A stretch of 64,000 bases of DNA from a virus, in IMG/VR virus record IMGVR_UViG_3300033074_002003. One strand, written 5' to 3'. Made by a program: the position numbers and the translations under genes. Under the pieces are notes generated by a model that ran no database searches, was not told the origin of the DNA, and saw only the letters and a program-made list of their open reading frames with translations. Shown in pieces: positions 1,296-46,098 of the stretch. How positions within the stretch are numbered: the first letter of the stretch is position 1; each line of letters begins with the position of its first letter.

Positions 1296-1299
1296 GCCC

Positions 1300-1653: not shown

Positions 1654-1679
1654 GGTGGTAGAGTCTATCCATGGACAAC
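1654..1679 (+). promoter_or_regulatory. Extended -10 leaderless promoter (ggtggtagagtctatccATGgacaacaac)
   Basis: TGgTAGAGT then 8 nt then ATGGACAAC. Confidence 0.6.
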
Positions 1680-1985: not shown

Positions 1986-2024
1986 GCGCGTGACTCCGAT
2001 CACCGAGAAGGGTATAGTTCGATC

Positions 2025-2231
2025 ATGGACAACATCAACATCGGTGATCGCGTGACGCAGGCCCGTGCAATGGAGGGCATGCGCGAGAGTCAGAAGTACG
2101 TGGGCCTGCGCGGTGTGGTCCAGGAGATCTTCGTTGACGAGCGTGGCAACACCCACGCGTTCGTGAAGTGCGACCCTGGACAGTGGCTCGTGGAGTTCTG
2201 GGCGCCCGCCCACCTCTTCGACCGCGAATAG
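2025..2231 (+). CDS. Small early protein (68 aa), KOW/SH3-like (IGDRV...GVV)
   Basis: Cassette promoter gggtatagttcgatcATG. Followed by hairpin 2276-2305. Confidence 0.6.
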   Translation: MDNINIGDRVTQARAMEGMRESQKYVGLRGVVQEIFVDERGNTHAFVKCDPGQWLVEFWAPAHLFDRE

Positions 2232-2370
2232 TGCCTCGCGGGTGACCCGAGAGGGTCCCGGACATCGCGGGCAGGGTGTGACCCATTGGGTGAGGTGGGT
2301 CACACTCGGGTGGACGTCGGGGTCGAGTGCGTGAGTGTAGGTGAGTGAGAGGGATGGTATAGTCTTCATC

Positions 2371-2667
2371 ATGGACAAGGACATCTCTCTCTCCACCCTC
2401 GCCTCGGCTATCCTCTATGCACTTAACAACGTGCAACAGGAGGGCACCGGCTCCACACGCTTCCCGTCCTCCGAAGCCTACACCGAGTTCGACAACACCA
2501 TCGAGAGCTACGACCTCCGCCCACAGGTTAACGGTGATGGCACCGTCGACATCAACTTCTACCGCGAGGTGAACGACCTCCGCACGTGCAAAGACGGCGA
2601 TGTCTTCCGTAAGGTCTGGTGTGTCACCATGACCATGAAGGTCATCGAGGACAAGTTCGAGGAGTGA
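2371..2667 (+). CDS. Small early protein (98 aa)
   Basis: Cassette ggtatagtcttcatcATGgacaag. Trimmed from ORF 2341..2667. Confidence 0.55.
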   Translation: MDKDISLSTLASAILYALNNVQQEGTGSTRFPSSEAYTEFDNTIESYDLRPQVNGDGTVDINFYREVNDLRTCKDGDVFRKVWCVTMTMKVIEDKFEE

Positions 2668-2718
2668 CACGGGCGTGAGCGCGTGCTGGCCCGTGATCGA
2701 GATGTTATAGTCTCGATC

Positions 2719-2934
2719 ATGGACCGGCACACCAAAGACCAAATCGACAACTTCGCGTGGGACTGTGTCGTCGGCTCTGGGATGGGTCCCGAGTGGGCCG
2801 AGCTCGGTGTCGAGCCCGACCGTGACGTGCTACGTGCGCTGTCAGGCCTCCTCGGGCACCGGCTCACGGGTGAGGAACACAGCGCGTTCGTCGACGCGTG
2901 GAACAAGTGTCTCCAGGAGTGTGCCCACCCGTGA
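2719..2934 (+). CDS. Small early protein (71 aa)
   Basis: Cassette gatgttatagtctcgatcATGgaccgg. Trimmed from ORF 2683..2934. Confidence 0.55.
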   Translation: MDRHTKDQIDNFAWDCVVGSGMGPEWAELGVEPDRDVLRALSGLLGHRLTGEEHSAFVDAWNKCLQECAHP

Positions 2935-2965
2935 TAGGATGCGGGTGATGTGGTAGAGTTCGATC

Positions 2966-3355
2966 ATGGTGTGCTACCCGACGATCAGGTGCAACTGCGC
3001 AGAGCCGTTCTTGTACACACCCATCGGGTGGGACGCGGGTGACTACGTCTACATGCCGATGTGGAGCACTGTGATCGCCGCCCGCGCCCACCTGCGTCGA
3101 GACAGTATCATGACGCGTTGGGAGGCCACACGTGACGAGTTTCTCTGTCGCATCCCGAAAGGAGCGGCGCTGAGAGCACGCGATCTCTTCCCCGACGCAA
3201 AGGAGTTCTACACCATCCCCCGCGATCTCGGGACGATGGCTGAGGTGACACAGGCGGGTGCACTGCTTCGACTCATCGAGGCTCGCGACCCGTATATCAC
3301 GTGGGCAATTGCACACCTCGACGGGCGCGTACTCGTGCAAAACGTGAGAGGGTAG
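2966..3355 (+). CDS. Small early protein (129 aa)
   Basis: Cassette gtggtagagttcgatcATG. Confidence 0.55.
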   Translation: MVCYPTIRCNCAEPFLYTPIGWDAGDYVYMPMWSTVIAARAHLRRDSIMTRWEATRDEFLCRIPKGAALRARDLFPDAKEFYTIPRDLGTMAEVTQAGALLRLIEARDPYITWAIAHLDGRVLVQNVRG

Positions 3356-6225: not shown

Positions 6226-6243
6226 GTGAGGTATACTCTACCC

Positions 6244-6480
6244 ATGGACAACAACATCTCTAAGTGGAAGATCCCTTCGTGGATGATCGCTGGCGTGCGG
6301 TGTAAGGTCGTCCGTGGGCGAAAGGTGAAGATTGGTGAAGTTGGAACTATCATCGACACCTTCACCACGGGGAACGGACACAAAGCGCGTGTCCATTTGG
6401 ATTCGACGGGTCCCATCCAGCGCGTGAACCCGCAGCTGTCCTACACGCGTATCGCAGTCCAGAACCTAGAACCTATCTAA
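6244..6480 (+). CDS. Small early protein (78 aa), KOW-like
   Basis: Cassette gaggtatactctacccATGgacaacaac. Confidence 0.6.
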   Translation: MDNNISKWKIPSWMIAGVRCKVVRGRKVKIGEVGTIIDTFTTGNGHKARVHLDSTGPIQRVNPQLSYTRIAVQNLEPI

Positions 6481-10453: not shown

Positions 10454-10479
10454 GGTGGTAGAGTCTACCCATGGACAAC
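10454..10479 (+). promoter_or_regulatory. Extended -10 leaderless promoter (ggtggtagagtctacccATGgacaacaac)
   Basis: Same cassette; last copy of the early array. Confidence 0.6.
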
Positions 10480-10686
10480 AACGTACCGAAGTACGAACTC
10501 GCCGTGGGCGCCCGTGTCGTCGTCTACAAGGGAACCGGACAGATTGTCCCGCGCGGGTCGACTGGCGTCATCCTTCGCTTCCGACCCACGGGCTCCGCGA
10601 TCGATGACCTCGTGTGTGTTGACTTCGACAACGATGGGTGCGGACACTGGGTCCACCGGTCCCACCTCGCGATCATCGCCGACTGA
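10471..10686 (+). CDS. Small early protein (71 aa), KOW/SH3-like (VGARVVVYKGTG)
   Basis: Consensus cassette; starts MDNN. Confidence 0.6.
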   Translation: MDNNVPKYELAVGARVVVYKGTGQIVPRGSTGVILRFRPTGSAIDDLVCVDFDNDGCGHWVHRSHLAIIAD

Positions 10687-11443: not shown

Positions 11444-12190
11444 ATGGCAAGTGACGCGCTCATTCGCGCCCTCCTGAGGGAGATCCTCGTCGAGGGGCGG
11501 GTAGACGATGCGGCCGCTGTGTGGGCGGCGGGCGGGGGTTCGCCCGAGACGTTCAGGGACATCGTCGCGGCACAGCCGCTCAAGAGCTCGAACAAGTTCC
11601 TCGGGTGGACGGTGCGGGCGATCCTGAGAGATCCCGGGATGGGTACCGACGTCGACGCGATCGGGTTGGACGTCGTGTTCAACCTCCTGAAGGAGTTTGA
11701 GGGCGTGGTCGAGTTCCTGCCGCGGGAGAGGCGAGACATCTCGGGGTACTCGAGCTTCAAGGAGCTCTCCCACGTGGTGCTCGACGCGGCCGCCCTGAGG
11801 TCCGAAGCCCTGAGCGCCAGGGTGGGTCCCGGTGACGTTGATCGCGTCTGGGAGGGCGGCGGGTGGATCGTCGTTCGGCCCCGGACGATGGGCGCGGCGA
11901 TCAAGTACGGGAAGGGGACGAAGTGGTGCATCTCGGCGCTCCGTCACAACAAGTTCGATGACTACGACGAGTCGGGATCGGTGCACTTCTTCGCGATCGA
12001 CCGCTCGCCCCTCGCGGACGGTGACGACATGTCGAGGATCGCGGTGACAGTTGCGGTTGACGGTGATGAGGAGTTCCACGACGCCCGGGACAGGGAGATC
12101 GACGAGTCGCTCGTGGAGCTGCACCTCGGTCGCGAGGTGTGGGGCGAGATCCGTCGCGCGATCTCATCGAACCTGAAGTCCCATACTTAG
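11444..12190 (+). CDS. Hypothetical protein (249 aa), very GC-rich
   Basis: Start taken at the ATG inside the motif catacttagtgggATGg. ORF-track frame 11408..12190. Confidence 0.45.
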   Translation: MASDALIRALLREILVEGRVDDAAAVWAAGGGSPETFRDIVAAQPLKSSNKFLGWTVRAILRDPGMGTDVDAIGLDVVFNLLKEFEGVVEFLPRERRDISGYSSFKELSHVVLDAAALRSEALSARVGPGDVDRVWEGGGWIVVRPRTMGAAIKYGKGTKWCISALRHNKFDDYDESGSVHFFAIDRSPLADGDDMSRIAVTVAVDGDEEFHDARDREIDESLVELHLGREVWGEIRRAISSNLKSHT

Positions 12191-12194
12191 TGTG

Positions 12195-14021
12195 ATGGGA
12201 ATCAAAACGAGGGTTACGAGCCGCGGGATCGTGTCGTCGCTCTCTCCGGGCGAGGGCGACTCCTTTGACTGCGATGTGTCGCTCGGTACGGGCGCGATCG
12301 GTGGCGTGATCGGGAACACCTGGGTCGTGACGCCCACATCGTCGTCCGCGGGCGACCTCGCGGCGTGGAGGGAGGCCGCGGGGGCCGCCGCGCTCGTGGG
12401 CGGTCGCGTCCTCGTGAGGTCTGGGACGCTCAGCATCGCGTCCGACGTGACGAGCTCGCTGGGCGTCACTGTCGAGTTCCAGAGGGGCGCGGTCCTCGAC
12501 GTCGCGACGGGCTCTGTGGCGCTCTTCTGCGGTCCAGTCGTCGGTGGAGACATCGTGAAGGTCACGGGCGCGGGCGTCGCTCGGTGGCGCGGGCGGTCGG
12601 TGCAGTCGCTCTGGCTCGTGGGGGATTCCCTCGGCGTGGGTTCTGGCGTCCCGTTTGTGGGCGGCTGGCGCACGGGCATCGAGGCGTCCCTGCGCCGCTT
12701 CAGGTCCGATTTCGATTTTGTGGGCGACAGGATGACGCTCGCCTCTTCCTCGGCGGGAACGGGCCTCGCGTGGCACTCCTGCGTCTCGGGCGAGACCATC
12801 GGGGGCGCGACGGCGCTCGTCACCCAGCAGCTCTCGGGCTGCCTCGTGACACCGGACGCCGTCGTGGCCGTCCTCGGGACGAACGATATCGTTGGCGGGC
12901 AGACGCTCGCGCAGATGAAAGCCTCGTGGGCGTCGTACGAGTCGGCGCTCTTCTCCGCCCTTCCGAACGCCCAGCTCTTCGCCGTCGCGCCGCCTGTCTT
13001 TGTCGCGGGTTCGTCGGTGGGCGCGAACCTCTCCGCCTGGAACTCGACGCGGTCGTCGTACGCCGCCTGGCTCTCCGCGAGGTCGCTCGCCGATACCCGC
13101 CTCGTTTTCGTCGACCCCTGCGCGTCTCCTGGGATGTCGGCCGCCGAATTCCAGAGCGACGGCGTGCACTTCAACAGGCTGGGCAACGCGTCGTTCGGCG
13201 GGGCGATCGCAGACGCGATCGACACGTGGCTGGGTCCTGTGAGGAAGGGCGCGCTGCCCGTCCCGCGGATGTTCAGGCAGCGCAACGTCGCGGGTTCCGT
13301 CCTCGTCGATGCCGCGGGCGACGTGCGCGTCGTCACGGGCGCCGGGTGTGACATTCCCGCCGTCGGCGGGTTCGCTGTCGCGATTGACGTCTACCCGACG
13401 GCTCTCGGCGCGGGCCCGCTTGCGGTGCTCGCGATCGGCCCGAGGAACGCGAACCCGGCGATGTGGCTCTGCATCAGGCAGCTCGGTGCCGCGCTCGACC
13501 TCGGGGGTTACAGCGGCGCGGGGACGTGGGTCACGTCGGCGTTCTCGTCTCCGGAGGATCGCTGCCTCGTCGTGAACAAGTGGCACAGGATCGTCGCGAT
13601 CATTCACAGGGGGACAGGGTCGCTGCAGGGGTCTGCGGGCCTCTACGTGAACGGTCGCCTCGTGGGCACGATCTACGGGCTCGCGAACACGTGGCCCGCG
13701 TCGGCGCAGACGCTCTACCTGGGAAACTCTCCCGATTACGTCTCGTGTCCCGGGTACTACTCCTCGCTCCGCGTCTGGTCCGGGCCGCTCGTCCCACGGC
13801 CGGGATCGATGGCCGCCCTTCGCGCTGTGGAGGCGAACTTCTTCAACGACGAGCCCGTCGTCCCGGGCGCAACGACGTCTGTCAGGGAGTTCGACGGCGA
13901 CCTCCTCGACGCTGTGAGCGGTTCGGTGGCTGCTGGGCTCTTCAACGGTTCGACGGCGCTCGCCTCCGCGTACCCGCAGGGAACACCCCTGCGCCCCTGG
14001 GAGATCGGCGCCGATTACTGA
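12195..14021 (+). CDS. SGNH/GDSL hydrolase fused to C-terminal LamG/ConA-like domain (putative virion-associated polysaccharide esterase/depolymerase)
   Basis: LWLVGDSLGVG (GDS block), GTNDI, DGVHFN (SGNH blocks III/V). C-terminal ~200 aa is Gly/Ser-rich beta-rich, LamG-like. Starts at the second copy of catacttagtgtgATGg. The 788-aa antisense ORF is a GC artefact. Confidence 0.6.
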   Translation: MGIKTRVTSRGIVSSLSPGEGDSFDCDVSLGTGAIGGVIGNTWVVTPTSSSAGDLAAWREAAGAAALVGGRVLVRSGTLSIASDVTSSLGVTVEFQRGAVLDVATGSVALFCGPVVGGDIVKVTGAGVARWRGRSVQSLWLVGDSLGVGSGVPFVGGWRTGIEASLRRFRSDFDFVGDRMTLASSSAGTGLAWHSCVSGETIGGATALVTQQLSGCLVTPDAVVAVLGTNDIVGGQTLAQMKASWASYESALFSALPNAQLFAVAPPVFVAGSSVGANLSAWNSTRSSYAAWLSARSLADTRLVFVDPCASPGMSAAEFQSDGVHFNRLGNASFGGAIADAIDTWLGPVRKGALPVPRMFRQRNVAGSVLVDAAGDVRVVTGAGCDIPAVGGFAVAIDVYPTALGAGPLAVLAIGPRNANPAMWLCIRQLGAALDLGGYSGAGTWVTSAFSSPEDRCLVVNKWHRIVAIIHRGTGSLQGSAGLYVNGRLVGTIYGLANTWPASAQTLYLGNSPDYVSCPGYYSSLRVWSGPLVPRPGSMAALRAVEANFFNDEPVVPGATTSVREFDGDLLDAVSGSVAAGLFNGSTALASAYPQGTPLRPWEIGADY

Positions 14022-19993: not shown

Positions 19994-20072
19994 CCCTCCG
20001 TGACACACGTGAAAATTGCCGGGTGATGTGTTATGTTTCCACCATGCCCATGGTCCTCATCTCTGGTGCCAA

Positions 20073-20549
20073 ATGAGCTACGTCACGATGGAGTCGAAGG
20101 ACGTCCTCGCGCTCCACGCGAAGCTGGCGGCCAGCATCTTACATTCGGAAGAGGTTCACCTGAGCATGTCTCGCGCGCCCATCAACATGCTCAGAGAGTC
20201 GTGGGAACTCGTCAGCTCGTCAGTCAGCGGCGACGTCGTATTCGTCAGCTCGATAGAAGTCGTCACGACCGTGAACGCGACAATCGAAGCGATCGACAGC
20301 TTCAACAGAGACTTCGTCGTCTCTTACGCGTCGCTGGGTGTCAGGGAACGCATCAGGAAATGGCTAACGCTCCGTGAGGCACGCGCGGCGACGGTGAAAA
20401 TACGCACGTCCCTCGTCGATTTCAGGCGGCAGCTGATGAAGCACGGCTCGTGGGAGAGGCGTGACGTCGCAGTCGACAGCAACTTCATCGAGGCGGCACA
20501 CAAGTTTGTGAAACGGTTTGCAGAGGAGCACACGGAGCGGTACAGGTAA
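20073..20549 (+). CDS. Hypothetical protein (~158 aa)
   Basis: First ATG (MSYVTMESKD) in the frame of ORF 20016..20549, whose listed start is TTG. Confidence 0.4.
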   Translation: MSYVTMESKDVLALHAKLAASILHSEEVHLSMSRAPINMLRESWELVSSSVSGDVVFVSSIEVVTTVNATIEAIDSFNRDFVVSYASLGVRERIRKWLTLREARAATVKIRTSLVDFRRQLMKHGSWERRDVAVDSNFIEAAHKFVKRFAEEHTERYR

Positions 20550-20556
20550 GTCCCTC

Positions 20557-20642
20557 AGTGACACACAGGGGGGTTGATGTGACTTGTATGGGTACCAACC
20601 CACCAAATCCACCAACCTCCCTGTGTGTCACTCGTGGGTCGT
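20557..20642. terminator. Bidirectional hairpin between convergent genes
   Basis: AGTGACACACAGGG.GG / CC.CCCTGTGTGTCACT arms (~16 bp) with a ~50-nt loop. Confidence 0.45.
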
Positions 20643-20650
20643 AAATTACG

Positions 20651-21181
20651 TCACGGGACTTTAGAGTGCCAGAAACTTTCGCTCCCGCAGAATCGACAGC
20701 GAAACGACAAGTGCGACACGGTCTGCGAGCATTTTGCGCACTGTTTGTATCTTGGCGTTACCGCGGGTGTCTCTTTTAGCTGTGTGGCCTCTTCTAGACG
20801 AGCGACGCGGTCCTCGAGTGCCTTGATGCGATCCGAACCCGCGTCTGTGGGACCGCACACACCGTATTTTTCGATGATTTCTTTGCTGGCTGGCTGCGGG
20901 GTTAGTAATTCTCGGATCGCTGGTACGCTATCGGACGTCTCGAGAAGGAAACGTTTGTCGCGCTTCCCATTTGGCCATTCTACGAGCTCTTCGAACTCGC
21001 GCTCCTTTCGGACCCAGAGGGTGTTGGCATTTGGGCGGCCCGCGCCGACTGCACGGTAGACGATAAGCGTCAACTCGGGATCATCCGAAGAGCGTGCTCG
21101 GTGAAGGATCTCGTAGAGGGTACCCTTGAAGTGACGGTAGAAGAGGTCTTCTGTGACCATTGTTTTCCCTATTTCTCGCAC
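20651..21181 (-). CDS. DUF1653-like domain protein with C-terminal CxxC...CxxC zinc ribbon
   Basis: YRHFKGTLYEILHRARSSDDPELTLIVYRA resembles DUF1653 as I recall it. C-terminal CAKCS...CRFCG. Confidence 0.5.
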   Translation of the reverse strand: MREIGKTMVTEDLFYRHFKGTLYEILHRARSSDDPELTLIVYRAVGAGRPNANTLWVRKEREFEELVEWPNGKRDKRFLLETSDSVPAIRELLTPQPASKEIIEKYGVCGPTDAGSDRIKALEDRVARLEEATQLKETPAVTPRYKQCAKCSQTVSHLSFRCRFCGSESFWHSKVP

Positions 21182-21522
21182 ATGAGTACAGTGCGAACGT
21201 ATTGTTCATCTGTCAGATCACACGCAGTACACCCGAGGTGAAACTCGTCGTGGGCCGAACAGGACCTCGTGCGAAGGGCAGAGATTCGAGCCTGTAGCTC
21301 TTTGATCTGCCTCCGACAATCGTCGATCGCCGCGTGTCTCTCTTCGCGTGTGCAGGGATGGGTCATGGTGTTTCTTCCTGATGCAAGCTCGTAATCACCG
21401 CCCTGAGCGCGGATCTGGCGCCTGAGGTCTGTGTTCTCCTCGTACGAGCGGAAGAGGAGGACACCCATGAGAAGCGTGCCGAGAGCAAAAGCGATCGCCG
21501 ACACAAAGAAGACAAACATCAT
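21169..21522 (-). CDS. N-terminal TM plus periplasmic coiled-coil protein (i-spanin-like candidate)
   Basis: MMFVFFVSAIAFALGTLLMGVLLF, then helical heptads and C-terminal Cys residues. Start trimmed from ORF 21169..21621. Confidence 0.35.
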   Translation of the reverse strand: MMFVFFVSAIAFALGTLLMGVLLFRSYEENTDLRRQIRAQGGDYELASGRNTMTHPCTREERHAAIDDCRRQIKELQARISALRTRSCSAHDEFHLGCTACDLTDEQYVRTVLMCEK

Positions 21523-21542
21523 CTTCTTCAGGTCTGCGCGCG

Positions 21543-21812
21543 TCACTTCTCCTTCGGTACCGGCGGGTGTGCGCACAGGCACGTGTCCTTCTCTACGATC
21601 GCGGTGTTCGGCGGCGGACATAGCTTGCGACAGGAGTTGAGGTCGTCGAGGTACGTCACATAACTTGCCGTCGTGAGCACCGCAAACAGAGCAAATACGG
21701 CGACCCAGAAATATGTAACCTGAGTACGTTCAGACGCATTACTGCCAGCTGTGGGCAAATCCTCATGCGAGGGCATTAAACTTTCTCCGTATCTGCTAGT
21801 GCCTCTGGACAC
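21543..21812 (-). CDS. Small single-TM protein (89 aa)
   Basis: Hydrophobic segment FWVAVFALFAVLTTASYV. Confidence 0.3.
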   Translation of the reverse strand: MSRGTSRYGESLMPSHEDLPTAGSNASERTQVTYFWVAVFALFAVLTTASYVTYLDDLNSCRKLCPPPNTAIVEKDTCLCAHPPVPKEK

Positions 21813-22147
21813 CAGCTCGGCAGCGATCTATACACGACGGGACATCCGAGGTCCGTTGCGTGTTTGATTCCCAGTTCCATCCCTCGCGACGTTCCGAGGT
21901 CAGTGTAAACAACGGTCTTGCACCGCACTGCCTCGCGCCACGCGAATCCCGCTGCTATGCCATGAGCGCGCTCTGCGGGATCTGCGTCGCTGAGAACGCC
22001 AGGCTGAGTGTAAAGCGCGTGTGAGGCAAACGGTGCTTCTCCTCTCAGGAGACAGTCACGCATCGCGGCCCTCGCGTACGCTAGATTTTTTTCGATATCA
22101 CCGGCAAATGGTGACTCAAGGATGACAGTCTCAAATTTTGTGGGCAT
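21776..22147 (-). CDS. DUF4406 / nucleoside 2-deoxyribosyltransferase-like protein
   Basis: MPTKFETVILESPFAGD...ARAAMRDCLLRGEAPFASH...VVYTDLGTSRGMELG pattern. Start trimmed to the internal Met adjoining the upstream stop. Confidence 0.45.
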   Translation of the reverse strand: MPTKFETVILESPFAGDIEKNLAYARAAMRDCLLRGEAPFASHALYTQPGVLSDADPAERAHGIAAGFAWREAVRCKTVVYTDLGTSRGMELGIKHATDLGCPVVYRSLPSWCPEALADTEKV

Positions 22148-22581
22148 CACTTGAGCACCCGCGTAAGGAAATCGAGCGCCCCTTCGATGGCTCGTTCGCG
22201 CAGTGAGGGTTTCTCGACTGGCTTCATTCTGATCCACCTATTGAGCTCTTCGAAATCGAGCTTAGCGTCCTCGAGCTCTTCCTCCAGTCGCTCGCACTCT
22301 TCCTCGAGGCGAAGCCTCTCGCCATTCGCAGTGAGATAATCTTGCTGCCAATTGTCCGCGCCCTGGGCCGTCGTGCTGAGATCGCGTTCGAGTCGGTTCA
22401 CTCTGACGAGCTGTAGATTATCAGGATCCCAGTTCCGCATGCGCCACAACTTCTTCGCGAGAGCCTTCCACGTCGCGGCCCTGCGAAGAAGTGTCTCCTG
22501 CTCGTCCTCCGCCCAAGCTCCCTCTGTCTCTAGGAGCGCGTCGAGATCGCTCAAATCAAAGTCTTTGTTCACGGTTTCCAT
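22147..22581 (-). CDS. Coiled-coil protein (144 aa)
   Basis: Glu/Leu-rich heptads. Confidence 0.45.
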   Translation of the reverse strand: METVNKDFDLSDLDALLETEGAWAEDEQETLLRRAATWKALAKKLWRMRNWDPDNLQLVRVNRLERDLSTTAQGADNWQQDYLTANGERLRLEEECERLEEELEDAKLDFEELNRWIRMKPVEKPSLRERAIEGALDFLTRVLK

Positions 22582-23014
22582 CTCCGAGGTAGCGGTTGCG
22601 TCGCGCTCTGCCTAATCTTCTGCGTGTCTTTGACGTCTAACTGTCGCCCGCAGTGAACACACTTCACGTGCGTATCGACTGAACACGCCGAGAAATTCGT
22701 CTGTCCCCCGCACTCGCAGGCGAGGTCTTCCTTGCTACACATGCAGCCCGCGGGCTGGACCAATGTTACGACAGCAGTTTTCACGGGATGACATCCCCAT
22801 AGATGTTCTGGGCCCTCGCGGCGAGCGCACTGAGCTGCTTGCGCAGGTCGTACACCCACTGTGCCTGTGCTCGCGCGGACTTGCGCGCTGCGATAAGCTC
22901 TTCGAACGCTGCAATGAGCATGTGTGCCTCAGCCTGTCGCGCGGAATTCAGGAGACCGTTGAGCTCTTCGTCAGTGAGCAACTTTGACATGCAGAAATTA
23001 TCTGCTTCGTCACA

Positions 23015-23311
23015 TCAGTGTACAAGCGTCGGGTCGCAGTGCGGGTGCCCGCCCACTCTCACGACGATGCCGCGGCGCCCATCGAGCGTCAGGCACGGTT
23101 CGCCGGGAAGCGCGTCGCACGGGAACGTGAGAAGCGGGCGCGGTCCCGGCCTCTCGGGGAGCGTCCCATCGTGACACTGCAGGGGTTCGGGCCGCGATTC
23201 GACAGCGGGCGCGAGATGCTTCTTTTCGGGAGCTGGGAGGATGTCGGGGCGCTCTGCACATCCAGAGACACAACAAAGACAAACGATCGCAAGGGACACA
23301 AGCTTCTTCAC
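23015..23311 (-). CDS. Pro-rich lipoprotein (o-spanin-like candidate)
   Basis: MKKLVSLAIVCLCCVSGC has lipobox VSGC. Mature part is Pro-rich with 5 Cys. Preferred over the antisense ORF 23018..23341. Confidence 0.5.
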   Translation of the reverse strand: MKKLVSLAIVCLCCVSGCAERPDILPAPEKKHLAPAVESRPEPLQCHDGTLPERPGPRPLLTFPCDALPGEPCLTLDGRRGIVVRVGGHPHCDPTLVH

Positions 23312-23314
23312 ATT

Positions 23315-23515
23315 TCACCTCACGACGGTAAAACCCTCTAGCTCGTCTGCTGTGCGAACGAACTCTTTGCGAGTTTCGTTGAGATCGTTCCAGAATATCT
23401 GAAATCGATTGTCAGCATATTCGATCGGCTCTGCGTGACGAGTCGCGACACCCATCCACGCAAATCGCTGACTCACGATCAGATCACCGATGTGAAGGAA
23501 TTTGTCGCGCGTCAT
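23315..23515 (-). CDS. RVGDL-IFW small beta-barrel family, tandem copy 1 (66 aa)
   Basis: HIGDLIV...WMGVAT...FQIFWNDL...FTVVR. 4-nt overlap with the next copy. Confidence 0.55.
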   Translation of the reverse strand: MTRDKFLHIGDLIVSQRFAWMGVATRHAEPIEYADNRFQIFWNDLNETRKEFVRTADELEGFTVVR

Positions 23516-23706
23516 CGAACGATCCTGTAGATTTCGCTGAAGCCCTGATCGACAGTGTTAGTCTCAATCCGCATCAAATCTATCCAGAATATATCACACT
23601 TTGCGCCCTGTTCTAGAACAGTAGTTGTCAGCGCGGCGCCTATGAAAGCACCGACGTGACTGTGAATGCACAGGTCACCCACGCGGATAATTTCGCCCGC
23701 CCTCAT
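23512..23706 (-). CDS. RVGDL-IFW family, tandem copy 2
   Basis: RVGDLCIHSHVGAFIGAAL...CDIFWIDL...YRIVR. Confidence 0.55.
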   Translation of the reverse strand: MRAGEIIRVGDLCIHSHVGAFIGAALTTTVLEQGAKCDIFWIDLMRIETNTVDQGFSEIYRIVR

Positions 23707-23930
23707 CTGACGATCCTATAGTTTTTGAGGACGTCGCAATTGAACAATCCCTCTTCAGCTCTCATAGAATCTGACCAAAATATGTCACACGCCGCCGGTG
23801 TTAGACGATCTCGCGCGCCGGGCCTCAATACGACAGTGTCAAGCGCGATGCCGATATATCGCGCGACATGGTGAGAGATGCAAAGATCGCCCACGCGAAT
23901 GATTACGCTCGCTTTCATCGCGTGAGCCAA
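23703..23930 (-). CDS. RVGDL-IFW family, tandem copy 3
   Basis: RVGDLCISHHVARYIGIAL...CDIFWSDS...YRIVR. Confidence 0.55.
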   Translation of the reverse strand: MAHAMKASVIIRVGDLCISHHVARYIGIALDTVVLRPGARDRLTPAACDIFWSDSMRAEEGLFNCDVLKNYRIVR

Positions 23931-24133
23931 TTGACAGCACCGCCAGTCACGAGCTCAAATGCTTGTTCGAGTAAGTTGTTGTTTTCTCGATCTGCCCACA
24001 TCGCAAAGGTTCTGTCTTCCACTCGACGTGTCACGACACCGAGTTCAATCATTGTCCTCGAGCGCAGGCGCCAGCGAAATTCGACGAGGTCCCCCACGCG
24101 ACATGCTTCAGTTGATGTAGGGATCGCAGTCAC
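23915..24133 (-). CDS. RVGDL-IFW family, tandem copy 4 (divergent)
   Basis: RVGDLVEFRW...LGVVTRRV...FAMWADRE. Confidence 0.45.
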   Translation of the reverse strand: MTAIPTSTEACRVGDLVEFRWRLRSRTMIELGVVTRRVEDRTFAMWADRENNNLLEQAFELVTGGAVNWLTR

Positions 24134-24134
24134 G

Positions 24135-24332
24135 TTACCTCACTCGTAAGTAGATAGCAGGAAGAGTCCACCACCACGAAGGGAGCTCACCGGTGCCGTC
24201 AGCCCAGAAAATGTCAAAGTAGGCTTCACCATCAGAGCGTGTTGGGCCGCTTCTGGTGACGACTCCGATCAACGATGATCGCTTCCGATGTACCAGCAGA
24301 TCACCCAGGCGCATGTCATCGTGATCACTCAT
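24135..24332 (-). CDS. RVGDL-IFW family, tandem copy 5
   Basis: RLGDLLVHRKRSSLIGVVTR...FDIFWADG...YLRVR. Confidence 0.55.
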   Translation of the reverse strand: MSDHDDMRLGDLLVHRKRSSLIGVVTRSGPTRSDGEAYFDIFWADGTGELPSWWWTLPAIYLRVR

Positions 24333-24601
24333 CGCTCGAGCACCCTGATGTGCGGATTGTCGAGGGGTTCAAATTCGGTGTGAAATCCCTCCGAACCGTA
24401 AACACAAAAATACGATGGCACAGCGTCGTAAGCGTCAATTCGTTCCTGATACGACACAGACTTCGTAATGACACCGATAGCCGCGATGGCATTGCTCTCT
24501 AGGGAGGGAATGAGGCAGATCAGGTCGCCCACCCTGTGATTCAGAAACTTGTGAGGAGCGGTTACGCGACCCACTACACGATGAGTTGTGATTTCGATCA
24601 T
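24329..24601 (-). CDS. RVGDL-IFW family, tandem copy 6
   Basis: RVGDLICLIP...AIGVITKS...IRVLER. Confidence 0.5.
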   Translation of the reverse strand: MIEITTHRVVGRVTAPHKFLNHRVGDLICLIPSLESNAIAAIGVITKSVSYQERIDAYDAVPSYFCVYGSEGFHTEFEPLDNPHIRVLER

Positions 24602-24819
24602 CGCGCGATCAATTTGATCGAATTGTTCCGGTGCGGCTGGAACTGGGTTTCTTGGCCCGTGTTGCTACTTCCTATTTGACAATTCCACACGCAGAAAGAA
24701 TACTCGGCTGCCCATTCCGCTTCGTGTAACGTGACCAATTTTGTGATGACGCCGACGGGACTGTGTGGAGGATTCATCACGATGAGATCGCCGACCCTGT
24801 AGTCAAGGATAGAACTCAC
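24598..24819 (-). CDS. RVGDL-IFW family, tandem copy 7 (GTG start after AAGGAG)
   Basis: VSSILDYRVGDLIVMNPPHSPVGVITKL...IKLIAR. The ORF-track N-terminal extension to 24924 looks spurious. Confidence 0.45.
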   Translation of the reverse strand: MSSILDYRVGDLIVMNPPHSPVGVITKLVTLHEAEWAAEYSFCVWNCQIGSSNTGQETQFQPHRNNSIKLIAR

Positions 24820-24976
24820 TCGCGCTCCTTGTACCACATATAGATCACAGCAATGACTACAGCGGGCCACAGCAAGATCGTGAACATAGTGTCGTCCCAC
24901 CGCACAGGGTTGTTGTCCGTCCACGCGACCACAACGCCGACGAGGAAGTAAGTCGCGTAGAGCGCGTAGAAGAGTG

Positions 24977-25414
24977 TCACTGTGTCGCCTCGACTTTCTC
25001 GATCAGTTCAAACGCTCGTGCTGCAGCACACGAGTACGGGACGGGGTGTTCGTCGCCCAAGTGCCCGCACTGTCCGATATCGGCTATGCTACAGCGAGCG
25101 CGAAATGGGCACACGGTGTGAGCTGGGATTCGACCGTCCGCTAGACGCGGTAGACTCAGCACGCGTCGCTGCCGAATTTCGGCCCGTGCGGTTGTTTCCG
25201 CTGCACCGAGCTTCACTGCAGCTCTTCTGCGTGCAGGTGTGAGATCGTAGTGATTCGCGACGCGGTGCGACTGAAACCACTCGCGCTTCATCCCGAGCCT
25301 CGCCGCGAACTCGTGAAGCTCCTCGTCGCTGTCGGCAAATAGGTGACACGACCCGCGAGAAAAAATCCCGCGCGCACCTGGGTAAATTCGCAGCTCGTCG
25401 ACCCTGACTGCCAT
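24977..25414 (-). CDS. DUF4031-like protein
   Basis: MAVRVDELR...GSCHLFADSDEELHEFAARLGMKREWFQ...HYDLTP matches my recollection of DUF4031. Confidence 0.5.
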   Translation of the reverse strand: MAVRVDELRIYPGARGIFSRGSCHLFADSDEELHEFAARLGMKREWFQSHRVANHYDLTPARRRAAVKLGAAETTARAEIRQRRVLSLPRLADGRIPAHTVCPFRARCSIADIGQCGHLGDEHPVPYSCAAARAFELIEKVEATQ

Positions 25415-35439: not shown

Positions 35440-36582
35440 ATGACCGATTTTGCCACTAGCGGGAACCGTGAGATCGTCATTTCGTTCGACGATACGGGCA
35501 GCATGCACACGATCAGGGCGCGCGTGCGTCGCCACGTCAACGATCTTACGAGGCGGCTCTTCTCGACGGATCCAAGCATTCGCCTGGGAGTCGTGGCACA
35601 CGGTGACTACTGTGACGACCTCGATTCGAATCGCAGGGCACACGGCTTCTACCTCATGAAGTCGTGCCCGCTCACGAACGATCCCATGGCGATCTCGAGG
35701 TTCATCAACGAGGTGGGTCCGACGGGCGGCTGTGGCCCTTACGCGGCGTACGAGTACGTCCTCAACAAGATGCGTACCTTCAACTGGACTGCCGGCATCT
35801 CGAAGGCGATCGTGCTCATCGGCGACGAGCCCCCGCACGACACGTCGTGGCCCGAAATGCGATCGCTGGTGGGTCACACCATCGACTGGCGCAACGAGGC
35901 GGCGATCCTGCGCGACGCGGGCATCAAGGTCTTCGCGGTCCAGGCCCTTCGCAAGGGATACGCGACGCCGTTCTATCGCGATCTCGCGCAGATGACGAAC
36001 GGCTTTTACCTCGAGCTCGACCAGTTCGACAGCATCGTCGAGATCATCGAGGCGATCGCGATGAAGCAAGTGAGCGACGATCACCTCACCTCGTTCGAGG
36101 AGAGGCTCCTGCAGCAGGGTAGGATGAATCGAAACCTCGATAGCGTCATCGGAACGCTCTCGGGTCGCACTCCCGCAGTCCAGTCGAAGTTCGCCCAGAA
36201 GTGGGGTGGCGGGCCGAGCCTCGACGCTGTGGTGCCAGGTCGCTTCCAGTCGATGCTCGTGTACAACGACACCGTGATCAAGGGCTTCGTGGAGGAGAAC
36301 GCGCTGAAGTTCGAGAAGGGCAAGGGCTTCTACGAGCTCACGAAGTCCGAGACGATCCAGCCCTACAAGGAGATCGTGCTCGAGGACAAGAACACGGGTG
36401 ACATGTTCACGGGTCGCAAGGCGCGAGATCTCATCGGGCTCGCGCAGGACCAGGAGGTCTCTTTCACCTCTACGCGCAAGTCGTGGTCGAGCCAGTACCG
36501 CGTCTTCGTGCAGTCCACGTCCTACAATCGCAAGCTCGTCGCTGGGACGCGATTCCTGTACGAGGTCGACCAGAACGCGTGA
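35440..36582 (+). CDS. von Willebrand factor A (vWA) domain protein
   Basis: MIDAS DxTxS in IVISFDDTGSMH. Rossmann-like alternation. SD GGAGGAAAC upstream. The 430-aa antisense ORF is an artefact. Confidence 0.6.
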   Translation: MTDFATSGNREIVISFDDTGSMHTIRARVRRHVNDLTRRLFSTDPSIRLGVVAHGDYCDDLDSNRRAHGFYLMKSCPLTNDPMAISRFINEVGPTGGCGPYAAYEYVLNKMRTFNWTAGISKAIVLIGDEPPHDTSWPEMRSLVGHTIDWRNEAAILRDAGIKVFAVQALRKGYATPFYRDLAQMTNGFYLELDQFDSIVEIIEAIAMKQVSDDHLTSFEERLLQQGRMNRNLDSVIGTLSGRTPAVQSKFAQKWGGGPSLDAVVPGRFQSMLVYNDTVIKGFVEENALKFEKGKGFYELTKSETIQPYKEIVLEDKNTGDMFTGRKARDLIGLAQDQEVSFTSTRKSWSSQYRVFVQSTSYNRKLVAGTRFLYEVDQNA

Positions 36583-36800
36583 CCTACAAACGAGGTCGCA
36601 ACGACTACGATACGGACGAGCGGACACGGGCCGTAGATTCGCACCTGCTCTACGCCCGCGTCGGCGACCTCGTCTATGATTCCGTATACCTCGTCGCAGG
36701 TGTGGTTCTCAGAACAGAATACACGCACGTAGTACTGTTCTTGATGGACGACGGGTGCCCTTTCAACGTTCCGATCGAGTACGTGCGGAGACTCGCGTAA
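36578..36800 (+). CDS. RVGDL-family paralog (GTG start, 73 aa)
   Basis: ARVGDLVYDSVYLVAGVVLRTE...VRRLA. Confidence 0.35.
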
Positions 36801-41915: not shown

Positions 41916-44903
41916 TCAGCTCAATACGAATGGCGCGGCGAGCGACGTGCCGAGGCGGGCGTATAGAATCGGATTTCTGTTTGTTGACACTCCATCAACG
42001 AAAGGCAACGATGATGTCGCTTCCAGCGATAGGTTAGAACAGCTCGTTGATTCTGGATCTACTGACACTCCGTCGGTGCCGACGAATCTGGCAGACACGG
42101 GAGACGTCTGCCTGCCGATGATGCCGCCGAACGTACCGTCAGACTTGTACCCGACAGTATCGTAGAAAGAAGAATACGCGCGCTGCTCGAGCATATCACG
42201 CACGTGTCCAAATCGATCTCTTCTGAAAATGGCGCGTGAGTACTGCGGGACGCCGTTCAGAATACCGTATTTCCAGCCGCGAATTTCAACTCCGACAATA
42301 GCTGTCGCCGAACCACCGCCAGTGTATACAGTAGCAGACATTCTCTTTCTGAACCGCGGAAACGATGTACACCCGTAAGGAACATCGGGATAATCTGGAT
42401 CTGCAACGTGCGAATCATTCATCGTATTCTCGTCGCCGATACCAAAGAAAAATTTGTTGATGTCATTCTTGGATGCCGCAACGAGCTGCGTACCAGCGTA
42501 GACATTGCTATCACCAAACAGTGCGGGTGAACGGCCCGTCTCGAACAGTAGCGCGGCACCAATTGTTTCGGGACGAACTTCTACAATTGCAGCTGTCACC
42601 ATTTTGTTCGCGCCCTTGAAGCGTTTGACTTCTAGCTTCCTGTCGAGCGTAGAATATTGTGGAGCGAACGGGTATCCTTTGCTAAATTCATAGTCAGCAC
42701 GCAGTACACCTTTAGCGTCAACAGCAAGAGTGATTACGTCATCTCCGGGAATAGCAGCATTGGCAAACGAGTTCCAGCCCATCCACGCTCTGGCACCATC
42801 AGCGAGAGCAATTTCGTCAACGCCCGGAACCATCGAATCCCAGAACCTCTCGTTCGGTGACGAGGCTTGCGCAAATAGTTGCGTGCCCGCGACGATTTCA
42901 TACGGGTATTTGAGGCGGTCTGAGAGCATCTGCGAAGTTGCGATCGACGATGTGATGGATGATCTCGATCCAATCGCTCCGCGAGCACTTGAACCGTTGA
43001 CCAGCGCGGCGCTGCCCGTAACGTAGACATCTGTGTATGATCCACTGTATGTAGACCGCGCTTCAAGGTTCCACTGATCGACGACAGGTGATCCGACGAT
43101 TGTTGAGTAGTGAACTGCGTTGGATGTCACGTTCTGGTTCAGCGTATCGTGAAACTCTGCCTGCTCTCTCACCTGAGAGCCGAACAGTGTCATCTTGATC
43201 GTTCCTACTGGAATGGTAACGTCGTGCGACGCCGTGAGTGGGAACGAGTTGTAAGAAGCCGAAACTGTCTGCTCTTGCGGCGAAGAGTGATACTTTGACA
43301 CAACGAGGACGAGATTGTCTGTTGACGTCAAGAGATACGGCGAAATTACGTTTCCCTGAACGTTCTGAATCGCGAGATCGCTTAGACTTCCGGACGCTGT
43401 TCCGTATACATCGAGGCGCGCGCCCAACTCTTTGAGGCGTACAATTTTTGAGTTACCAGGAGATCCCACGTCACGACCAAATATCGATCTTCCTGAAACC
43501 TCACCTGACTTGCTTCTTCCGAAAGGAGAAACCGTGTAAACGTAACCCGCTGGTTCACTCTGAAATGGAGACAGTGGAGCTGTCGTCGTCGTATAAGACG
43601 CATAATCAGCGTACGTGCGGAAATAGGGCTTCATGTACACGAGGCCATTTGACACACGCGCTTCCATGTCAAATCTCAACGTACCAGCGAATTGGTGTGA
43701 GCTGCCTGAGGGAATTACTACAGTTGGTTTTGCGCCGAGAGCCGTAAATCCTTGAACTGAACGGTACTGCTTGTACCCGGGTGCTGGCGCGAATGGTGGT
43801 ACAGACGTCGAGCGAATGATTTCAGACGTATCATCTCCTTGCGGGATGATTGATGCTGACATGATTAGTTCTCGGCGCGTGGGCGAAATCTGATTGAACA
43901 GTGAAACCATGACACACGGTCCACCGAGACCCAAACAAGTTTCGTCATTCACACCGTGCGATTGCGCGACGCGTGTCCTATCATTGAACCAGTTACTGCC
44001 CGCCTGAAAAGGAAATTCAAGTGTCGCCCTTTCGAGAAGAAATGGCGTATCAGAAAAATCACCGACGTTAAATGACTGTGATGTCGACGCGGCGTATTTT
44101 GAATTTCGCGTGACGCCAGCATCATCATTTGATATTAGCGTTTCGACGCCCTCTTCCTGAAGTGCATTTGAGTAGAATGGCGCAAAACGAGCATATGATG
44201 CGAATGAGTATACGTCAGAGATGTATGACACCATCTTCCCGAACGCGCCCGAAGACGCGTAATTGCCGAGAGCGTCAAAAAACTTCACATCGAGGAATGG
44301 GTACGAAAATGCAAAACGTGATGGTGTCCCCTGAATGATCGGATTCGGATCTGTCTTCTCAGAGGGAGCGATTTCTTGGAACGTGCCTTCAACCTTGTTG
44401 TAGTAGTACGCGCTGGACGTAAGTGGATCTAGCGTCACGGCTGTCTTTACAGGAAGCTCAAATCGTATCTTTGTCTTCTCACCGAGCGGGGCTTTGAACC
44501 CAAGCCCTAGCTCACTGACGTTGCTGCCCGTTCGATACATGACACTCGACTTATCGAGGTCCTGTTCGTGCAGGCCCAATTCGATGAATGGTTTGTACGT
44601 GCTGAGTGTTCTAGTGACCGTGACGAAATTTTCTGCCACGCCTTGTGTGAATGAACCGACAGCAGAAATGCTACTCGTGAGGTCAGACGCGAGATTTCTG
44701 TTGTCTGTTGGCAGTGTTGTCGGGTACGAAACAGTTCTGCTTCGCGAGTAGATCAACGTGTCGTTGTCGTTGAACGGACCACCAGATGTACCGATGCGAG
44801 GATCGCCCGTCCTGCGTGTGTGTGGGTACCTCGACTCAGCGTTGTCGAGATTTCTCAGCGTTGTCCTGGGCAGAAGTCGTCTCATGTTAGAATTTGAACC
44901 CAC
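41916..44903 (-). CDS. Large virion structural protein (995 aa)
   Basis: Ser/Thr/Gly/Asn-rich beta protein in the late operon. No enzymatic motif seen. Confidence 0.5.
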   Translation of the reverse strand: MGSNSNMRRLLPRTTLRNLDNAESRYPHTRRTGDPRIGTSGGPFNDNDTLIYSRSRTVSYPTTLPTDNRNLASDLTSSISAVGSFTQGVAENFVTVTRTLSTYKPFIELGLHEQDLDKSSVMYRTGSNVSELGLGFKAPLGEKTKIRFELPVKTAVTLDPLTSSAYYYNKVEGTFQEIAPSEKTDPNPIIQGTPSRFAFSYPFLDVKFFDALGNYASSGAFGKMVSYISDVYSFASYARFAPFYSNALQEEGVETLISNDDAGVTRNSKYAASTSQSFNVGDFSDTPFLLERATLEFPFQAGSNWFNDRTRVAQSHGVNDETCLGLGGPCVMVSLFNQISPTRRELIMSASIIPQGDDTSEIIRSTSVPPFAPAPGYKQYRSVQGFTALGAKPTVVIPSGSSHQFAGTLRFDMEARVSNGLVYMKPYFRTYADYASYTTTTAPLSPFQSEPAGYVYTVSPFGRSKSGEVSGRSIFGRDVGSPGNSKIVRLKELGARLDVYGTASGSLSDLAIQNVQGNVISPYLLTSTDNLVLVVSKYHSSPQEQTVSASYNSFPLTASHDVTIPVGTIKMTLFGSQVREQAEFHDTLNQNVTSNAVHYSTIVGSPVVDQWNLEARSTYSGSYTDVYVTGSAALVNGSSARGAIGSRSSITSSIATSQMLSDRLKYPYEIVAGTQLFAQASSPNERFWDSMVPGVDEIALADGARAWMGWNSFANAAIPGDDVITLAVDAKGVLRADYEFSKGYPFAPQYSTLDRKLEVKRFKGANKMVTAAIVEVRPETIGAALLFETGRSPALFGDSNVYAGTQLVAASKNDINKFFFGIGDENTMNDSHVADPDYPDVPYGCTSFPRFRKRMSATVYTGGGSATAIVGVEIRGWKYGILNGVPQYSRAIFRRDRFGHVRDMLEQRAYSSFYDTVGYKSDGTFGGIIGRQTSPVSARFVGTDGVSVDPESTSCSNLSLEATSSLPFVDGVSTNRNPILYARLGTSLAAPFVLS

Positions 44904-45621
44904 CGAAAGCTAGCGAGTCTGTACCCTTTTGCGCTCCGTCGTAAGTAAACCCGACGCCCATCGATTTCGATCCGCTCAAGAGTCGAGTATTAGCATCAGT
45001 CCCACTCATCGCAAGTCGTGCTGATACGTGAAGTTGCGATGCACTAACTGGCAACACGAGCCCGATTTTATACGGAAATGCGTCGCTGTAAGGCGAAATC
45101 ACCGCAAATTTCGGAACACGACCGGTTCGATACGTTTCGCGCGTGATGAGCGCCCGGCTGTCGACAAATGGGCCCATTGTTCCCGTTCGTCCGGGCACGA
45201 ACTGGTCGGCAATGTCATCAACTTCGCCGAACTCATTTTCGTTGCCCGATTGAATCGCGCCTTTGATTCCCAGCACTTCTTTTGGGAAGAATTCGTTCGA
45301 TCCTGACGCAGAACCGAGAGGATGCAGCGCACCGTCGAAGTAACGTGCTACCCTATCACGGGTCATTCTCTCGAAGCACGCCCGGCCCTGACTTGTTTGT
45401 ATGAATTCGGACGACACGTAGCGCTGCTGTTCTTCAAATGGCGCGGGGTAATCAAACTGTCCAACTTGCCCGAACTCAACCTGTGGCAGTTTGTGATCGT
45501 CGTACCCAGACCAGATTTTTGCGACACCGGCCGCTACGTGCTCTGGTGCTGTTATTTCGACGCCCTGACGGTATCCGTCTACTTCACGTGTATCGATTGT
45601 GCCACTCGGGTGCGTTGCCAT
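44887..45621 (-). CDS. Structural protein (244 aa)
   Basis: Late operon. Confidence 0.5.
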   Translation of the reverse strand: MATHPSGTIDTREVDGYRQGVEITAPEHVAAGVAKIWSGYDDHKLPQVEFGQVGQFDYPAPFEEQQRYVSSEFIQTSQGRACFERMTRDRVARYFDGALHPLGSASGSNEFFPKEVLGIKGAIQSGNENEFGEVDDIADQFVPGRTGTMGPFVDSRALITRETYRTGRVPKFAVISPYSDAFPYKIGLVLPVSASQLHVSARLAMSGTDANTRLLSGSKSMGVGFTYDGAQKGTDSLAFGGFKF

Positions 45622-46098
45622 TTACACCCTCCTCTTGACGATATTTCGCTGTGCATCATTGAATGCGGGTGCTTTTCCGTAACTTCCCGGCGGCGCGATG
45701 AGACGCGTCGAAAGCGCGGTGGGTTGATCTCTGCTGGCAAGGCTTGCGTCGGTGACTTCGCCCGAAACAACGGCTATTGTGTACTGAACATCAGGTATGT
45801 CTGAGTATGCGGTGATGGCGTAGATGCCCGATTGCGTCGCTGTGAAGACTACTGATTTTTTTCCGACGCCCGTCCATGTCGCGACGACGGGTGTAGCTGG
45901 TGGTAGAGGCGGCGTGGGCCACGAAATTAGAACTGTCATCCCAGTCGTAGGGAAGTTCACAATGCAAGAATAGACGCCGCCAGCAACGTCAATGTTGCAA
46001 GAGTGAACTCTTTGGTAGCGTCCCTTTGATGCGCACGCGGCAGTAAGCGTTTCGGACGTTTCAACGCCAATAGTCGACGTTCCAGTACAACCTGCCAT
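45622..46098 (-). CDS. Structural protein (158 aa), Ig-like
   Basis: Late operon. Confidence 0.45.
   Translation of the reverse strand: MAGCTGTSTIGVETSETLTAACASKGRYQRVHSCNIDVAGGVYSCIVNFPTTGMTVLISWPTPPLPPATPVVATWTGVGKKSVVFTATQSGIYAITAYSDIPDVQYTIAVVSGEVTDASLASRDQPTALSTRLIAPPGSYGKAPAFNDAQRNIVKRRV

Follow-up and report, generated by a model that had tools for sequence, protein, structure and literature searches.

Blocks of tiny, fast-evolving genes for which databases offer no explanation are numerous in large phages, and one such block holds seven variants of one small protein side by side in a single operon. The locus lies in a 64,000-nucleotide (nt) stretch of viral DNA (IMG/VR virus record IMGVR_UViG_3300033074_002003), hereafter the window, which is drawn from a 329,329-bp metagenomic contig of an uncultured tailed phage. 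Between positions 23315 and 24819, on the - strand, seven paralogous small open reading frames (ORFs), here called c7 to c1 in the order in which they are read, stand head to tail within 1505 nt. This array is a conserved operon segment of the ~329-kb phage, and the same operon is present in three further lineages, L001-L006 (aquatic metagenomes, PRJNA377521), L007-L010 and L011. Its products constitute a lineage-restricted family of stand-alone proteins, which a structural model predicts to be SH3-like barrels of the Tudor/KOW class. An earlier reading of this DNA, the original prediction, had seen in the array a small beta-barrel family amplified rapidly in an arms race.

Seven paralogous genes in one operon

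Pairwise identity among the seven proteins ranges from 17 to 56%, with c2 and c3 as the closest pair. Residues G10, D11, L12, G22/23 (the Gly of the IGV motif) and a C-terminal Arg are invariant, and the Trp of the IFW motif is found in six of the seven copies. When hidden Markov models (HMMs) were built with one copy left out, that copy always came seventh among 1243 six-frame segments, immediately after the six used for training, at E-values from 1.9e-12 (c2) to 1.1e-3 (c4). The GDL, IG(V/I), IFW.D and C-terminal Arg motifs on which the array was first recognized are thus real, and the copies align well beyond chance.

Read leftward, the array begins with c7 (24598-24819; 73 amino acids (aa); VSSILDYRVGDL...IKLIAR; public gene call P0003). 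Its GTG start at 24819 has an AAGGAG Shine-Dalgarno sequence 8 nt upstream, overlaps the upstream stop by 4 nt and agrees with orthologues that start MSSI(L/I)DY; the end formerly given for the array, 24924, is that of the longest GTG ORF of c7 and was abandoned, while 23315 was retained. Next is c6 (24329-24601; 90 aa; ATG start), which carries a 24-residue N-terminal extension and is the best conserved of the copies (83-96% identity to its orthologues), followed by c5 (24135-24332; 65 aa; ATG start; P0004). The most divergent copy, c4 (23915-24133; 72 aa), begins with a GTG located 1 nt past the c5 stop and has GAGG upstream. Because its N-terminus, TEACRVGDLVEFRW, is kept in L001, L007 and L011, this long start was preferred over the 45-aa public gene call P0016. 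The array is completed by c3 (23703-23918; 71 aa; ATG start; MKASV...; P0001), by c2 (23512-23706; 64 aa; ATG start), which is 56% identical to c3 and was the copy used for the fold model, and by c1 (23315-23515; 66 aa; ATG start; P0002).

Five of the six internal junctions (c7/c6, c6/c5, c4/c3, c3/c2 and c2/c1) consist of a 4-nt ATGA stop/start overlap, as had been claimed for all of them; the c5/c4 junction reads TAA-C-GTG instead, with a 1-nt spacer and GAGG just upstream. This layout is identical in L001 and L007. At every junction the reading frame changes and an ATG or GTG of the next gene overlaps or abuts the stop, which excludes a single long protein and confirms that these are separate genes. 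No terminator-like site was found on the - strand across 20000-26500. Together with the leave-one-out homology, the layout identifies a tandem paralogue array arranged in the manner of translationally coupled genes. Coupling by termination and reinitiation would fit this stop/start arrangement, and it would be expected to yield roughly matched amounts of all seven proteins.

Predicted fold and sequence family

A model of c2, obtained with AlphaFold2 from an 18-sequence family alignment, consists of seven short strands and one short helix (predicted local distance difference test score (pLDDT) 82.7). It has the features of an SH3-like small beta-barrel, namely at least five antiparallel strands within ~50-70 residues and superposability on SH3, Tudor and KOW domains. 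The fold matches included the SH3 domain of UBE2O (score 5.8), the C-terminal Tudor domains of PcrA/UvrD (5.4-5.5), barrel domains of TraI (5.2-5.4), domain I of EF-P (5.1), CarD (5.0) and VapX (5.0). Foldseek searches of the PDB and BFVD gave no significant E-value, and the neighbours that they returned were consistently of the SH3/Tudor/KOW type. The nearest BFVD models were dozens of small uncharacterized phage proteins (probability near 1; template modelling score (TM) ~0.6), several of which share one accession block and may therefore come from one phage. Insertions and deletions among the paralogues all fall between modelled strands, that is, after strand 2 and on either side of strand 5. 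The copies have pI values of 5.5-8.6, and six of the seven are net negative at pH 7; no catalytic motif, signal peptide or hydrophobic segment was found in them.

As a fold class, the small beta-barrel anticipated from the sequence is therefore supported, whereas the membership in DUF2158/YodC, DUF3553 or KOW that had been suggested with it is not. When the seven copies were compared with Pfam-A at E <= 10, no family model matched, including those of DUF2158/YodC (PF09926), KOW (PF00467), CarD_CdnL_TRCF (PF02559) and DUF1653 (PF07866), and the sole hit was a spurious Daz repeat; a PHROGs scan of all copies at E <= 1 was likewise without a match. YodC/DUF2158 (PF09926), DUF1653 (PF07866; PDB 3BE3) and DsrB-like proteins are also stand-alone, small, SH3-like and uncharacterized, but the signature of GDL, IGV, IFW.D and C-terminal Arg is particular to the array family. 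No sequence relationship to the copies is detectable for the C-terminal Tudor domain of PcrA/UvrD (5DMA, 7EGS) or the N-terminal domain of CarD (4L5G), which, unlike the copies, are domains of helicases or transcription factors.

The array proteins make up a new sequence family with a very narrow distribution. Among 5.8 billion protein clusters, a profile search retrieved 16 proteins, all from the same phage group, and an exhaustive HMMER search of 1.84 billion representatives gave 10 hits, among which only P0018 and P0019, both from marine metagenomes, originate outside this group. Sequence-profile comparison with the PDB returned only YkuJ at E 0.54, which is noise, and an Rfam scan of the whole window found nothing in the array. 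Among GenBank phages, a near-identical DNA search with positions 20000-30000 had no match, and tblastn with c6 gave only noise (E >= 2). The phage has no more than distant cultured relatives, and identity in the baseplate wedge protein is ~29% with an uncultured 484-kb phage, Flavobacterium phage immuto and Microcystis phage Mel-JY01. Tandem families of tiny SH3-like proteins are, as a kind, already known from large phages. The literature searched on SH3-like phage paralogue arrays and on DUF4031, the family of a protein encoded in the same operon, contained nothing relevant.

Old duplications and rapid divergence

Each copy has a one-to-one orthologue at the same position in the related phages, of which four to five lineages were available for comparison. 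Ratios of nonsynonymous to synonymous substitution (dN/dS), calculated between orthologues by the Nei-Gojobori method, were 0.11-0.54 in 26 of 27 comparisons, the exception being a value of 1.08 at a dS of only 0.056. The copies are real coding genes and are under purifying selection.

The proteins nevertheless change faster than those around them. Between the window and L001, the seven copies are 47-83% identical (dN 0.08-0.41, dS 0.5-1.9, dN/dS 0.15-0.35), whereas eleven flanking genes are about 80-99% identical (dN 0.007-0.12, dS 0.23-0.77, dN/dS 0.03-0.22), with the exception of a 54-aa peptide encoded just upstream of c7 (identity 68%, dN 0.20, dN/dS 0.32). Among the flanking genes, identities to L001 were 99% for a vault-protein homologue, 94% for a SIR2-family protein, 95% for a metallophosphatase and 87% for a CCA-adding enzyme; by tblastn, a lipoprotein-like protein is 85% identical. 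Protein change in the array, expressed as dN, is thus 2-10 times faster than in its neighbours, and no other locus in the 13 kb compared is as divergent as the array. The earlier description of the locus as unusually fast-evolving, with a variable number of copies, holds in both respects, since lineages with seven, six and four copies exist. The divergence reflects relaxed constraint or diversification, not gene-wide positive selection.

Rapid tandem amplification, as proposed by the original prediction, is a different matter. DNA repeats longer than 15 nt are absent from the array, where only motif-coding stretches of ~15 nt recur, at a spacing of 203-212 nt. Because the copies are so dissimilar, lack long repeats and have one-to-one orthologues of all seven across lineages at dS values of 0.5-1.9, the duplications must be old, and losses are the only changes in copy number actually observed. 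Near-identical copies, long repeats and expansion, the marks of a recent adaptive amplification, were not found. Viral gene accordions are adaptive tandem amplifications, exemplified by poxvirus K3L. Like them, the array is a tandem family carried by a large virus, and recombination between copies alters their number; however, the copies of an accordion are recent and near-identical, whereas those of the array predate the split of the lineages and have been seen only to contract.

Divergence within the array is also mosaic. Between L001 and L007, c1 is 52% identical while c2-c6 are 95-97% identical, and between the window and L011, c5 is 68% identical while c1, c3 and c6 are ~95% identical. 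This pattern suggests that single copies have been exchanged between lineages, or replaced, by recombination with divergent phages.

Loss of copies by recombination within conserved motifs

Seven copies are present in the window, in its identical copies and in L001-L009; L010 is a 2-kb contig that ends inside the array. In L011, to which the window is most closely related, c2 is missing and six copies remain; the new junction lies in a 25-nt stretch common to the 3' ends of c3 and c2, which encodes NYRIVR-stop and includes the AGGA of the ribosome-binding site of the next gene. Four copies are present in L012 and L013, which come from two separate assemblies. There, c7 and c6 have become one hybrid gene by a crossover in the shared AGGGTCGGCGACCT stretch, which encodes RVGDL; c3 and c2 form a second hybrid, with the crossover in GGTGACCTGTGCATTCA, again in the RVGDL region; c5 is deleted near-exactly, such that c4 uses the ATG of c5; and c1 is intact. 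Three of the four losses are therefore in-frame deletions anchored in stretches that encode RVGDL or YRIVR. The two RVGDL crossovers leave in-frame hybrid genes, and the YRIVR crossover removes c2 cleanly. Stretches that are conserved for protein structure and ribosome binding thus also serve as recombination anchors.

An alternative history, in which a four-copy ancestor gained three genes by duplication, was considered and rejected. The c7/c6 hybrid of L012 has the N-terminus of c7, and its body differs at only one DNA position from c6 of L007, from which it follows that the deletions in L012 and L013 are recent and that these phages do not preserve an ancestral four-copy state. Mis-assembly of metagenomic reads is an unlikely source of the hybrids, because the ~14-17 nt shared at their junctions are shorter than the usual assembly k-mers and the same structure was recovered in two separate assemblies.

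Genes around the array and elsewhere in the window

The first gene of the leftward operon (24977-25414, -) encodes a 145-aa DUF4031-family protein (PF13223, E 5.7e-19); a 4-nt GTGA stop/start overlap links it to the next gene, and its position is the same in the related phages. In the L001-type lineage (L001 8377-8661) the called gene is 94 aa long, compared with 145-147 aa in the window, L011 and L012, and the short call is possibly a truncation or frameshift. Next comes a 54-aa ORF (24816-24980, -) with two hydrophobic helices; its stop and the c7 start, which has AAGGAG 8 nt upstream, form another 4-nt GTGA overlap. The sequence of this ORF reads as that of a putative membrane peptide, with 67-93% identity in relatives and a dN/dS of 0.32. 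The 23-aa hydrophobic peptide formerly listed at 24816-24887 is simply the C-terminal part of this conserved ORF.

Downstream of the array, beginning 3 nt past the c1 stop, is a Pro-rich, 98-aa lipoprotein-like ORF (23015-23311, -; MKKLVSLAIVCLCCVSGC...), in which a candidate lipobox, VSGC, can be read and which is 85-90% identical in relatives. The two conserved ORFs that bracket the array might, judging from their sequences, be a spanin-like or exclusion-type pair. The remainder of the packed leftward run (20651-22990, -) consists of small ORFs, with Pfam matches to DUF7768 (21776-22237) and DUF1653 (20651-21181); DUF1653 is itself a family of SH3-like barrels.

On the + strand, a CCA-adding tRNA nucleotidyltransferase (28242-29543) and a SIR2-family protein (29850-30620) are encoded in an order that is kept in the relatives, with a small ORF containing the motif HFGDLV between them. 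Beyond these lies the gene for the vault-protein homologue (30690-33281, +; 863 aa), which contains the domains of eukaryotic major vault protein (MVP_shoulder, E 3e-27; Vault_3, E 1.8e-9; Band_7/SPFH, E 2.8e-6), is 99% identical between phage lineages and has a dN/dS of 0.03. Such a homologue is unusual in a huge phage, and no description of vault proteins in huge phages was found in the literature searched. The only Rfam hit in the window is a tRNA gene at about 62037-62110 (-; 46.7 bits, E 8e-7), for which ARAGORN gave the anticodon as '(ta)' and assigned no amino acid. G+C content is 69% around 12-14 kb (12001-14000), where a 609-aa protein with GDSL-lipase and Laminin_G_3 domains is encoded, compared with 52-53% in the structural module (42001-50000).

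Other GDL-type genes

The original prediction had counted at least five more copies outside the array. The strict pattern [RKHQEFY][VILFA]GDL[VILC] occurs 11 times in the six-frame translation of the window compared with 0.4 +/- 0.6 times in shuffled sequences, and these hits comprise the seven array copies and four small + strand ORFs, in which an N-terminal motif of the form (H/R)(F/I/V)GDLV lies 47-81 residues before the stop. One candidate is the HFGDLV ORF (29600-29860, +), where the motif is N-terminal; it is 97% identical in L001 and thus slow-evolving, unlike the array copies. Three consecutive, coupled ORFs form a second mini-array (33677-34027, 34024-34245 and 34247-34498, +; 116, 73 and 83 aa) with (T/F/I)GD(A/L)V motifs, the first and last of which are paralogues (phmmer E 6e-6) that share a C-terminal ...VTVY(V/M)P(K/Q)(L/F)G... 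motif. The last candidate, with the motif RVGDLV...AGVVLRT (36579-36800, +; 73 aa), is coupled through GTGA to a preceding 380-aa gene.

Searches with whole-domain profiles did not place these ORFs in the array family. Run on the window, the family HMM found the 36402-36797 region best, at E 0.03, and among the other candidates only the 34247 ORF, at E 2.1; iterated on the local database, it converged at 33 hits without the 29600, 34024, 34247 and 36579 ORFs. Probabilities given by hhalign were 45% for the 36579 ORF, 1% for that at 29600 and 1-4% for those at 34024 and 34247, over only 9-26 N-terminal residues corresponding to the first hairpin. Pfam and PHROGs scans of the 29600, 34247 and 36483-36800 ORFs returned nothing meaningful. 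The 36579 ORF was consistently the best hit outside the array in the leave-one-out HMMs (E 0.012-0.15) and is a borderline distant relative of the family; its AlphaFold2 model was poor (pLDDT 57.5), and its homologue search yielded only two near-identical proteins. In an all-versus-all phmmer comparison of 31 small proteins, c4 matched a protein encoded at 1576-1770 of the marine contig L014 (E 6e-5) and c5 matched P0018 (E 3e-7), while the 29600 ORF matched that at 34024 (E 0.011). The candidates share with the array the GDL motif only. They are not additional copies and are best regarded as separate families, which probably have the fold and the first hairpin in common with it, and the enrichment of the motif makes a shared superfamily plausible.

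Three further + strand ORFs, at 2025-2230, 6226-6480 (entered as 6244) and 10471-10686, had been regarded as looser relatives. They start with MDNN(I/V) and contain KOW-like patterns of the type G-x-V-x-V...G...G-x-V. In the comparison of 31 sequences those at 6244 and 10471 matched each other at E 0.006, and the 2025 ORF paired with neither at E <= 0.05. This separate set looks like another small paralogue family.

An array of similar design is found on L014 (marine metagenome, JGI 3300017775; 1-3194), a 3.2-kb phage contig that holds the distant relative P0018, a significant hit of the family HMM (E 1.8e-4 against 1.84 billion representatives). Small ORFs with an N-terminal (V/I)GD(L/Y)(V/I) motif number at least 11 on this contig, and the majority begin M(K)(V/I)GDL(V/I). 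Eight of them follow one another at the end of the series, with overlaps of 11-14 nt at seven junctions, and genes matching the Pfam families Acb5 (PF26761) and Pyr_excise lie upstream. A Pfam scan of the small ORFs gave no match. The N-terminal GDL motif is common to both arrays, but the phages are different, and most members of the L014 array are beyond detection by the HMM; its genes overlap by 11-14 nt, compared with 4 nt in the window, and its proteins end in a different C-terminal motif, ...EVISE(S/N)R. Runs of GDL-type mini-barrel genes thus recur in unrelated phages, and no description of such arrays was found in the literature searched.

What the array may do

Throughout biology, SH3-like barrels serve as binding modules. 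The copies lack a catalytic motif, a signal peptide and a basic surface, are mostly mildly acidic and combine a conserved scaffold with variable loops, which argues for non-enzymatic binding modules, and their accessory-gene setting and rate of change point to host factors as the probable targets. The reading tentatively favoured here, at somewhat less than an even chance, is that the array encodes a set of protein binders for host takeover or counter-defence, which would be made together and whose make-up differs between phage lineages. Seven non-enzymatic barrels would be produced during infection, each recognizing its own target or one variant of a common target, and the targets would most likely be host proteins. 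The position of the distant relative P0018 on a contig that also carries an Acb5 gene counts in favour of this reading.

Several observations weigh against this proposal. Substitutions between orthologues are spread fairly evenly over the modelled fold, 33% of cells being variable in strands and 40% in loops. With gene-wide dN/dS below 1, and without a clear concentration of change in the loops, this is not the picture of a focused arms-race surface; an arms race with the copies as inhibitors or decoys, as had been envisaged, may still be involved. All 1505 nt are covered by eight other samples, and 478 nt by a ninth, on contigs of up to 305,889 bp; identity to the window is 100% in each, so the array is not changing quickly within its own lineage. 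Finally, the four-copy variants come from low-coverage short-read contigs (coverage 1.1-1.9), though from two separate assemblies.

Other explanations have to be considered alongside host-directed binding. The barrels could serve a membrane-linked function of the phage itself, acting as cytoplasmic adaptors with the 54-aa peptide and the lipoprotein in superinfection exclusion, lysis timing or an envelope complex. This is unlikely, even though SH3-like domains are often adaptors and the tight operon places a membrane peptide upstream and a lipoprotein downstream, in an order kept in every related lineage that reaches the flanks: the copies have neither a signal peptide nor a hydrophobic segment, the lipoprotein is 85-90% conserved compared with 47-83% for the copies and hence does not co-vary with them, and relatives with four or six copies keep the membrane peptide unchanged, L011 and L013 also keeping the lipoprotein gene downstream. 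The matches to PcrA/UvrD, CarD and NusG make attractive a narrower form of the binder proposal, mimicry of Tudor-like domains that interact with RNA polymerase (those of PcrA/UvrD, CarD/CdnL, Mfd and the NusG KOW), with the copies docking on the beta subunit to displace host factors or redirect transcription. These domains are, however, the commonest bacterial SH3-like barrels in the PDB; the UBE2O SH3 domain, TraI, EF-P and the SH3b domain of endolysins score the same, no Pfam CarD_TRCF or KOW hit was obtained at E <= 10, no Foldseek E-value was significant, and seven different polymerase binders would call for a further explanation, all of which makes such mimicry a long shot.

Equally hard to favour is the idea that the copies are small nucleic-acid-binding barrels of the KOW, Sm, cold-shock or PWWP-like type, directed at RNA or DNA of the phage or its host, where they might serve as RNA chaperones or as modulators of translation or transcript stability. 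KOW domains, EF-P domain I, PWWP-ssDNA complexes and ribosomal SH3-like proteins are among the fold matches, and a CCA-adding enzyme gene lies 3.4 kb away, but the net negative charge of six of the seven copies argues mildly against binding of this kind. It is scarcely credible that the region encodes one larger protein, by frameshifting or another genetic code, or is non-coding with chance ORFs. Gene callers do disagree on c4 (the 45-aa P0016) and skip some copies in some contigs; yet the frame shift and the separate ATG or GTG at each junction are identical in three other lineages, dN/dS is below 1 for each copy in its own frame, and the deletions that fuse copies leave intact hybrid ORFs.

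The preferred reading, a set of binders directed at the host, can be extended to one in which the array is a cassette system, with seven scaffolds whose different loops each neutralize a different host hub or defence protein and with recombination making and exchanging specificities. In-frame exchange of N- and C-terminal halves, by crossovers anchored in the sequences for RVGDL and for YRIVR-stop with the Shine-Dalgarno sequence, would let lineages generate and trade new binder specificities, and the same logic may underlie the marine runs of MK(V/I)GDL mini-genes. This extension is quite improbable as it stands.

Implications for mini-protein arrays in large phages

Of most interest are the hybrid genes that arose in frame at conserved motifs and the connection with comparable arrays in marine phages. 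Should the proteins prove to be ordinary, redundant accessory genes, the finding would amount to routine phage dark matter. If the cassette reading were true, it would reveal a widespread and unrecognized class of phage effectors of host interaction. With a confident fold prediction, a defined operon, orthologues in several lineages and natural variants of seven, six and four copies, the array provides a clean and well-bounded test case for the role of mini-protein arrays, be it counter-defence, host takeover or another, and it allows one to ask whether recombination at conserved motifs generally reshuffles small phage binding proteins.

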